Part shown: positions 41,065 through 41,432 of the stretch, in pieces
Layout of the letters: each line of letters begins with the position of its first letter
Position numbering within the stretch: the stretch's first letter is position 1
Virus genome (UHGV): UHGV-1461890
Length of the DNA stretch: 41,432 nucleotides
DNA from: a virus
Reading direction: 5' to 3' (one strand)
Notes under the pieces: generated by a model
What the model saw: the letters and a program-made list of their open reading frames with translations, nothing else
Database searches by the model: none
Told to the model about the DNA's origin: nothing
Made by a program: the position numbers and the translations under genes

Positions 41065-41352
41065 ATGTTAAACAAGAAAGTAATTATCAGAGCAGACAGA
41101 GCAGGAGTTTTCTTTGGAACACTCAAAAAGAAAAACGGCACAGAAGTAACCCTTAGCGATTGTCGCAGATTATGGTATTGGGATGGTGCTGCAAGTTTAT
41201 CACAGTTAGCGGTTGATGGAACTAATAACCCAAGAGAGTGTAAATTCACCGTAACTGTACCCGAAATAATCATAACAGGTGTGATTGAAATTATCCCTTG
41301 CACAGATAAGGCGATTGAATCTATTGAGGGTGTAAAGGAATGGAAAAGATAA
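41065..41352 (+). CDS. hypothetical protein
   Basis: ORF track; AAGGAG SD. Confidence 0.4.
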   Translation: MLNKKVIIRADRAGVFFGTLKKKNGTEVTLSDCRRLWYWDGAASLSQLAVDGTNNPRECKFTVTVPEIIITGVIEIIPCTDKAIESIEGVKEWKR

Positions 41353-41432
41353 AAGAATTTTTAAAAATTGAACTTGGCTCTGGCTCTGGCTATGGCTCTG
41401 GCTCTGGCGATGGCTCTGGCTATGGCTATGGC
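41340..41432 (+). CDS. 5' fragment of a gene running off the window end into the Gly-Ser repeat (MEKIKEFLKIELGSGSGYGSGSGDGSGYGYG...)
   Basis: ATG at 41340 (overlaps stop of upstream gene); no stop to the window end; reads the terminal repeat as GS/GY/GD dipeptides, the same coding frame type as the ORF open from nt 3. Confidence 0.35.
   Translation, partial: MEKIKEFLKIELGSGSGYGSGSGDGSGYGYG
41376..41432 (+). repeat. tandem hexamer repeat (GGCTCT/GGCTAT/GGCGAT)n at window end
   Basis: Direct reading; shares the 28-nt string GGCTCTGGCTCTGGCGATGGCTCTGGCT with positions 9-36. Confidence 0.8.

Follow-up and report, generated by a model that had tools for sequence, protein, structure and literature searches.

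The window analysed here is the whole stretch of 41,432 nt, one entire contig (a 100%-identical DUF6948 protein, P0121, is recorded on a contig of 41,432 bp), and each of its ends lies inside a coding tandem repeat (Table 1). At the right-hand end, the frame opened by the ATG at 41340, to which a preliminary description had drawn attention, does read MEKIKEFLKIELGSGSGYGSGSGDGSGYGYG to base 41432, in exactly 31 codons and with no stop; it comprises the peptide MEKIKEFLKIEL and then (GX)n up to the last base of the window. At the left-hand end, bases 1-2 (CT) complete a TCT codon as its positions 2 and 3, bases 3-47 read GDGSGSGDGSGSGDG, and the same frame runs on through a 156-aa domain to base 515, with the stop at 516-518. 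TRF finds period-6 and period-18 arrays at both window termini (1-47 and 41375-41432), with scores of 81 and 102 at periods 6 and 18 for the repeat at 41376-41432, whose only codons are GGC, TCT, TAT and GAT. Across the + strand of the 41.4-kb window, runs of at least three (GGY-NNY) units occur only at 3-44 and 41376-41429. Two such tracts, at the extreme termini and in the same orientation, are not a chance pattern.

Table 1. Features at the two ends of the window and in the adjoining early genes
Feature	Coordinates	Strand	Basis
DnaD-like replisome organiser gene	40265..41014	+	phrog_8489, E 1.2e-72; phage matches annotated replication initiation or DnaD-like
DUF6948 (PF22253) gene, 95 aa, predicted Sm/LSm fold, upstream partner	41065..41352	+	Pfam profile
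13-nt overlap ATGGAAAAGATAA, DUF6948 end (EWKR-stop) over split-gene start (MEKI)	41340..41352	+	sequence
Beginning of the split gene: ATG and N-terminal peptide MEKIKEFLKIEL, 12 residues, conserved	41340..41375	+	translation, homologue comparison
5' part of the coding hexanucleotide repeat (GGC-TCT/TAT/GAT), reaching the contig end	41376..41432	+	TRF, codon content
3' part of the same coding repeat	1..47	+	TRF period 18, 2.6 copies, 100% match; translation
C-terminal alpha/beta domain, 156 aa plus stop (516-518), conserved	48..518	+	homologue comparison
Next small early ORF, 96 aa, ATG overlapping the split-gene stop (ATGA)	515..805	+	ORF calls

The gene directly upstream of the ATG matches DUF6948 in Pfam (E 5.7e-29; 100.5 bits against a gathering cut-off of 27), and the predicted structure of its product is a five-stranded bent beta-sheet Sm fold, as Sm-LSm membership requires. 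The 13 nt that this gene shares with the start of the interrupted frame, hereafter the split gene, are a probable site of translational coupling between the two. The DnaD-like neighbor puts the pair in an early replication and recombination module. Within the DnaD-like gene, adjacent tandem repeats at 40618-40729 (+; 12 nt x3.2, 21 nt x2.2 and 6 nt x2.7) are a plausible phage origin with iterons, and a C5 cytosine methylase ORF at 39486-40199 (+; 237 aa) covers no more than positions 2-167 of its 324-position profile and may be truncated or split. On the far side of the split gene, profile searches gave no family match for the 96-aa ORF, and a coiled-coil-like early ORF (1559-2137) contains a 21-nt tandem repeat x2.7 (GATTTAACTTCTTTACAAAAC) at 1871-1927 (+).

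A search with the C-terminal 156 residues recovered 831 homologues of the same architecture. Full-length homologues consist of a 12-residue N-terminal peptide, a (G-X)n tract of 9 to 87 residues (29-79 in the closest relatives) in which X is mostly S, Y or D, and the conserved C-terminal domain. The peptide is MEKIKEFLxIxx in the closest homologues listed, with variants of that pattern in more distant ones. All of these family features are found in the split gene, namely the ME.I..FL peptide, the G-X tract and a C-terminal domain with FAHG and WHxxLTGSCxxGR motifs, and its closest homologue is 93% identical in that domain. In the closest relative (P0001, on contig L002) the gene is uninterrupted, and the two window ends match a single ORF of that contig: window 41028-41432 corresponds to L002 5689-6093 at 93.6% and window 1-460 to L002 6179-6650 at 90.7%. 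More generally, the C-terminal domain is in frame with an upstream ATG, in a single ORF, in 115 of 115 complete loci. In the window itself, the 171 residues encoded from base 3 onward include no in-frame ATG until about residue 76, and the domain must therefore be translated through the repeat. The earlier proposal that one protein spans the junction is thus supported by this shared architecture and by the colinear ORF of L002. Exact-pattern scans of viral and metagenome contigs with the N-terminal and C-domain junction sequences found no public contig of the same strain that spans the junction. That the tract is coding is supported by the in-frame C-terminal domain, by the fusion of tract and DUF6948 in one relative (L199) and by the conservation of Gly across different codons. 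The tract could be a linker, as the preliminary description called it, and it may itself be a functional part, since stand-alone G-X proteins follow DUF6948 in other phages.

How the two ends meet is constrained by the reading frame. A direct end-to-start join is out of frame, as had been pointed out, since the contig opens on the second base of a TCT codon; the joined sequence reads GLAMALAL... and reaches a stop at 49-51. The ends do share an identical string, as also described, but its full length is 30 nt (41392-41421 = 7-36), enclosing the 28 nt first reported. No exact suffix-prefix overlap longer than 1 nt was found between the contig ends, and a direct terminal repeat is absent. Imperfect end overlaps that preserve the frame exist at 47 nt with three mismatches, at 29 nt with two and at 17 nt with two. 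An in-frame junction requires 3n+1 missing bases or 3n+2 overlapping bases. The smallest repair, one missing T, gives a protein of 203 aa, and the 47-nt overlap gives one of 187 aa. The protein of the split gene should accordingly measure at least about 187-203 aa, compared with 170-253 aa in relatives. Its product would comprise the 12-residue peptide, a (Gly-X)n tract with X being Ser, Tyr or Asp that is probably disordered, and the 156-aa C-terminal domain.

Between its two ends, the window encodes all the modules of a phage. Genes for a terminase large subunit (TerL), a P22-like portal, a capsid protein, a BppU-type baseplate protein and an amidase are accompanied by a large serine recombinase, an HTH repressor, YqaJ, RecT, a C5 methylase and the DnaD-like organiser, and the lysogeny module (integrase, repressor) is internal. 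Because the gene set is full and the lysogeny module lies inside it, the contig most likely represents an excised or replicating form of the phage and not a prophage fragment. The prophage copies closest to it come from MAGs of Acutalibacteraceae and Ruminococcus, and the window would be the complete genome, with a circular map, of a temperate tailed phage of gut Clostridia. Among the tail genes, a single ORF of 3,782 aa (15917-27265, +) accounts for 27% of the genome; Pfam gives it a single match, an ART-PolyVal ADP-ribosyltransferase domain at residues 2188-2354, and its product resembles a giant "polyvalent" protein in a temperate phage of 41 kb.

Contigs of related phages stop at the same place. 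We collected 143 loci from IMG/VR and GTDB genomes on the criterion that they contain the start of the C-terminal domain, and 28 of them (20%) have a contig end inside the repeat of this ORF, half of these (14/28) on contigs of at least 20 kb. Two further contigs found through DUF6948, L084 (43,816 bp) and L085, likewise stop in the repeat, and one MAG scaffold has an N-run within it. An IMG/VR contig of 41,146 bp (IMGVR_UViG_3300045988_131586) carries the N-terminal part of the gene at one end, running off as MEEVKIKEFLSVNNGYGDG...GYGY, and the C-terminal part at the other, beginning (V)SGYGYGYGDGYGIKSING...; an exact overlap is absent from its ends, too. The full module set, the 28 of 143 loci that end in the repeat and this identically split contig uphold the earlier view that the break lies in the repeat. 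We consider it very probable, at roughly 0.88, that the two contig ends are the two halves of one gene, opened by the assembler in its coding repeat, and that the contig is a complete phage genome with a circular map. Bases 41340-41432 are then the 5' portion of an early gene and 1-518 its 3' portion, and the repetitiveness and length heterogeneity of its tract would be what breaks de Bruijn assemblies of short reads at this point. Of the initial idea of a circular contig, the circular map stands; a physical circle, which we infer, and a circularly permuted linear virion are indistinguishable from sequence.

It is useful to set this explanation against two others for the ends of the contig. 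Were these the true physical ends of the genome, with two different partial genes sharing similar repeats by chance, the absence of an exact terminal overlap and the out-of-frame direct join would follow naturally. Yet the ends are the two parts of a conserved ORF found unbroken in 115 related loci, a position in the middle of an early gene offers no terminase-proximal cos or pac logic, the identical split occurs on independent contigs from different assemblers, and the gene set is complete without additional sequence. True ends are therefore highly improbable. Alternatively, the imperfect 47-nt overlap could represent two strain variants of one stretch, with nothing missing and a protein of 187 aa. 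The overlap is in frame and has just three mismatches, each swapping D or S for Y, and contigs are known to break at within-population variation (PMC10914622). However, an 18-nt-period repeat yields near-overlaps at every register, as the fitting overlaps of 29 and 17 nt illustrate, and the tracts of the closest relatives are longer (29-79 residues), so that we regard a simple 47-nt overlap as rather unlikely. It is in any case a sub-case of the assembler-opened gene, with the same biology. The break itself is an ordinary assembly artefact, and one that is systematic for the family of the split gene. Assemblers such as metaSPAdes, MEGAHIT and IDBA_UD fragment genomes at intra-genome repeats and at within-population variation (PMC10914622). 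The breaks described in that COBRA study resemble the present one in that a circular-map viral genome is linearised at a tandem repeat with strain heterogeneity, and in that the break recurs across many samples. In contrast to those cases, the usual end overlap of maxK or maxK-1 is absent here, there is only the internal 30-nt identity, and the present contig is not closable from its own sequence alone.

The repeat varies in length far more than the DNA around it. Length variation had been anticipated, and it is evident among phages with identical flanks, whose arrays range from 135 to 387 nt. In a comparison of 64 loci, with DUF6948 and C-domain DNA taken as flanks and pairs kept at a flank identity of at least 99.5% (n=75), repeats were identical in 3 of 75 pairs and equal in length in 6 of 75, with a mean length difference of 77 nt; the arrays compared come from short-read assemblies, and the variation may partly be assembly error, which leaves the degree of hypervariability uncertain. 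Five loci with 100% identical flanks (L074, L078, L080, L081 and L082) have arrays of 135, 201, 153, 387 and 237 nt, respectively, and two aligned pairs among them are about 99% identical over 3.6 to 5.1 kb. The 3' array end is common to L074, L078 and L081, and the internal blocks differ in all five. Array lengths are 3 mod 6 in 64 of 64 loci. Gain or loss of 6-nt units (GGC-NNY), probably by slipped-strand mispairing or unequal recombination, would always preserve the frame and could in this way make the tract hypervariable among otherwise identical phages.

Codon usage in the repeat is similarly distinctive. Gly is encoded by GGC in 95% of 2,175 repeat codons, compared with 20% in the adjoining domain and 25% in other window genes, and Ser is TCT or TCC in 98% of cases. 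In other lineages the Gly codon is a different one: GGT in L010 and L011 (30/33 codons) and in L039 (23/23), and GGG and GGA in the tract of the freshwater phage MW202898. A universal selection for GGC at the nucleotide level is ruled out by these GGT and GGG/GGA arrays. Gly codons that are uniform within an array and different between lineages read as a signature of slippage-driven concerted evolution combined with selection on the amino acid. The repeat is like in-frame coding VNTRs and contingency loci, which evolve by slipped-strand mispairing, in that its units are short, are quickly gained and lost, and have homogenised codons within each array. It is unlike them in having a 6-nt unit that provides no on/off switching, with only the length and the order of S, Y and D varying, and in lying in an early intracellular phage gene instead of one for a surface or tail protein. 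A phase-variable contingency locus must have a unit that is not a multiple of 3, and this class was rejected on the 6-nt unit and the uniform 3 mod 6 lengths. A target of a diversity-generating retroelement was also rejected: ORFs of at least 200 aa contain no RT domain, and the tract is present only at the junction, with no second copy.

Two explanations place the function of the array in nucleic acid and not in protein. VIPR vrRNAs are phage-encoded guide RNAs made of tandem YNNGG units (bioRxiv 10.64898/2026.04.26.720920), and the repeat could act as an RNA of this kind in a 6-nt register, with the Sm-fold neighbor as its binder and translation incidental. Over 95% of tract units follow the GGC-NN-Y pattern, the upstream protein has a predicted fold of the RNA-binding type, and (GGC-NNY)n is stop-free in all three forward frames by construction, so that an open frame in stand-alone tracts is no evidence of coding. 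Like vrRNAs, the tract is phage-encoded and made of short tandem units in which GGY is constant and two bases vary, and the product of the small gene beside it has a fold of the nucleic-acid-binding kind. The differences are more numerous. The unit has 6 nt and not 5, and neither strand of the window has at least four YNNGG units in a row. The NN positions, hypervariable in VIPR, are dominated here by three dinucleotides (TC 828, TA 739 and GA 460 among 2,149 units, or 94%, with 13 other dinucleotides together at 6%). Whereas vrRNAs are noncoding and intergenic, the tract lies in frame between a conserved start and a startless C-terminal domain in 115 of 115 loci, Gly is retained through GGT or GGG/GGA codons in other lineages, and in L199 one ORF encodes both DUF6948 and the tract. 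Downstream of the tract, synonymous diversity is flat (0.46 against a mean of 0.50), and hence there is no counterpart to the conserved 3' tail of vrRNAs. A search of Rfam gave no match, and the 18 window ORFs of at least 200 aa include no RAMP family, the neighbor having an Sm fold where VIPR has Vipr, a RAMP protein of RRM type. Membership in VIPR is thus rejected on every defining feature tested (unit, NN variability, coding, 3' tail and neighbor fold), and an RNA role with incidental translation is very hard to credit. The array might instead act as DNA, for example as origin iterons that lie within a gene like those of lambda O, and it does adjoin the replisome-organiser gene. But phages that share identical replication genes have arrays of differing content and length, which excludes sequence-specific iterons; the repeats at 40618-40729 within the DnaD-like gene are better candidates for iterons, and phages whose replication modules differ carry this tract as well. 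An embedded DNA element is barely conceivable on these grounds.

The partnership of the G-X protein with DUF6948 extends well beyond the window. DUF6948 lies directly upstream in 113 of 115 complete loci, and in 87 of the 115 the two genes overlap by exactly 13 nt, with an overlap of the GAATGGAARAGRTAA type. The pairing occurs in phages of Clostridia, Chlorobi, Vibrio and Ralstonia. In four other phages a stand-alone (G-S/Y/D)n ORF follows DUF6948: Ralstonia phage NK-7, where it is annotated "fibroin heavy chain-like"; Vibrio phage IKEMa6-1; the freshwater phage MW202898; and Chlorobiaceae phage CV-1-33, which has the same overlap type (ATGGACGGTATAA) and whose published annotation is in the wrong frame. 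In CV-1-33 (MT192033, L158 1767-2030), the annotated gene_25 ("MAMAMAMALAMAL...") is the +1 frame of the GGC-NNY tract, and the frame that continues from the conserved 13-nt overlap after DUF6948 reads MDGINYGYGDGDGSGDG...; gene_25 is a probable mis-annotation in GenBank. In MW202898 (L152 2638-3036), the ORF after the stand-alone G-X gene opens with a Thr/Asp/Glu-rich low-complexity tract (TDSETDSDTGLDTETETGED...). We also took an arbitrary sample of 120 IMG/VR contigs with (GGC-NNY)10GGC, 90 of which have at least 500 nt upstream of the tract; DUF6948 ends no more than 400 nt upstream of it in 54 of these 90, and the C-terminal domain is present in only 20. A second class of short G-X ORFs, Asn/Tyr-rich, was seen in L208, L209, L211, L215, L217, L230, L242 and L281; these start with M..RPVGYGNG, end with GTVS..RR, have no DUF6948 upstream, and may be a different family with another partner.

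A fusion of the two partners was found once, in L199, with DUF6948 and a G-X tail in one ORF (IMGVR_UViG_3300002039_000015, 4912-5619), where the C-terminal G-X tail is in frame and a second, stand-alone G-X ORF comes next. The phrog_18306 profile (242 positions) matches the G-X tract at positions 59-123 and DUF6948 at positions 156-231, which suggests proteins with the tract N-terminal to DUF6948, a second fusion order. Overall, the core cassette appears to consist of an Sm-fold protein and a G-X protein, to which the lineage of the window adds a C-terminal domain. Literature searches for DUF6948, and for "fibroin heavy chain-like" together with phage, found no papers.

The C-terminal domain has no family match in Pfam, NCBIfam, PHROG, PADLOC or PDB and no fold match. 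Its homologues form 802 clusters at 50% identity, with D13, H52, K66, H100, T104 and F132 invariant and the FAHG and WHxxLTGSCxxGR motifs nearly so. In the cultured Riemerella phage vB_RanS_CRP5, a 28%-identical domain follows four BspA-type leucine-rich repeats in place of a G-X tract. This homologue (OQ268095, CDS 46497..527; L153/L150) has 4 x 23-aa repeats and is annotated "ribonuclease inhibitor", and the origin of the circular CRP5 record falls inside these leucine-rich tandem repeats. ORF67 of CRP5, upstream of the homologue, ends in an SSB-like DDDDLPF tip. An early intracellular role for the C-domain protein is suggested, because its gene adjoins replication and recombination genes both in the window phage and in CRP5.

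Several known proteins share the general design of the cassette. Eukaryotic Sm/LSm proteins include members with Gly-rich dipeptide tails, such as the RG repeats of SmD1, SmD3 and SmB, and LSm4. The likeness lies in an Sm-fold protein with an alternating Gly-X low-complexity tract, and L199 has an Sm domain fused to a C-terminal G-X tail. In two Oscillospirales MAGs (L145 and L130), members of the split-gene family have Arg-rich tracts (GDGRGDGRGYGRG...) that resemble these eukaryotic RG tails. In composition and in G-X alternation, the phage tracts are similar to FUS-type [G/S]Y[G/S] low-complexity domains and to the GAGAGS/GAGAGY repeats of silk fibroin, and relatives are annotated in GenBank as "fibroin heavy chain-like" and "Lamprin". 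Unlike these proteins, the phage tracts are shorter and have Asp at about 21% of X positions; there is no homology. Phage-encoded proteins of LSm-like fold are known from Tevenvirinae, in the T4 GoF family (PMC12152347). They, too, are small early phage proteins, but they have no evident sequence relationship to DUF6948 and no reported G-X partner.

The G-X protein and a DUF6948 ring may cooperate physically in early replication or RNA metabolism. A bolder proposal, which we hold to be improbable, is that DUF6948 and its (G-S/Y/D)n partner form a widespread phage Sm-like particle, in which hypervariable, FUS-like [G/S]Y[G/S] acidic tails would organise an early RNA- or DNA-processing assembly or condensate. 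It is compatible with the pairing in 113 of 115 loci and 54 of 90 contigs, with its recurrence across phages, and with the one fusion. The lineage of the window would then use the tail to tether an extra effector domain. In a more radical version, the GGY-NN-Y RNA itself would be the ligand of the Sm-like ring.

For phage genomics, the reading of the contig as a circular map opened within one gene has practical consequences. The split gene repeatedly breaks contigs, with about one in five related contigs stopping in it, and therefore many gut phage genomes of about 40 kb are complete and yet lack the terminal overlap sought by completeness tools. Gene callers, in turn, shorten the gene or take the wrong frame, as in the "MAMAMAL" ORF of phage CV-1-33. 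More broadly, the locus flags a two-gene cassette, present in phages of several bacterial phyla, that combines an Sm-fold protein and a low-complexity Gly-Ser/Tyr/Asp protein whose tract is hypervariable. By itself, the variant that carries the C-terminal domain comprises at least 800 clusters at 50% identity. Since the cassette is also carried by cultured phages (Ralstonia NK-7 and Vibrio IKEMa6-1), its role is experimentally testable.
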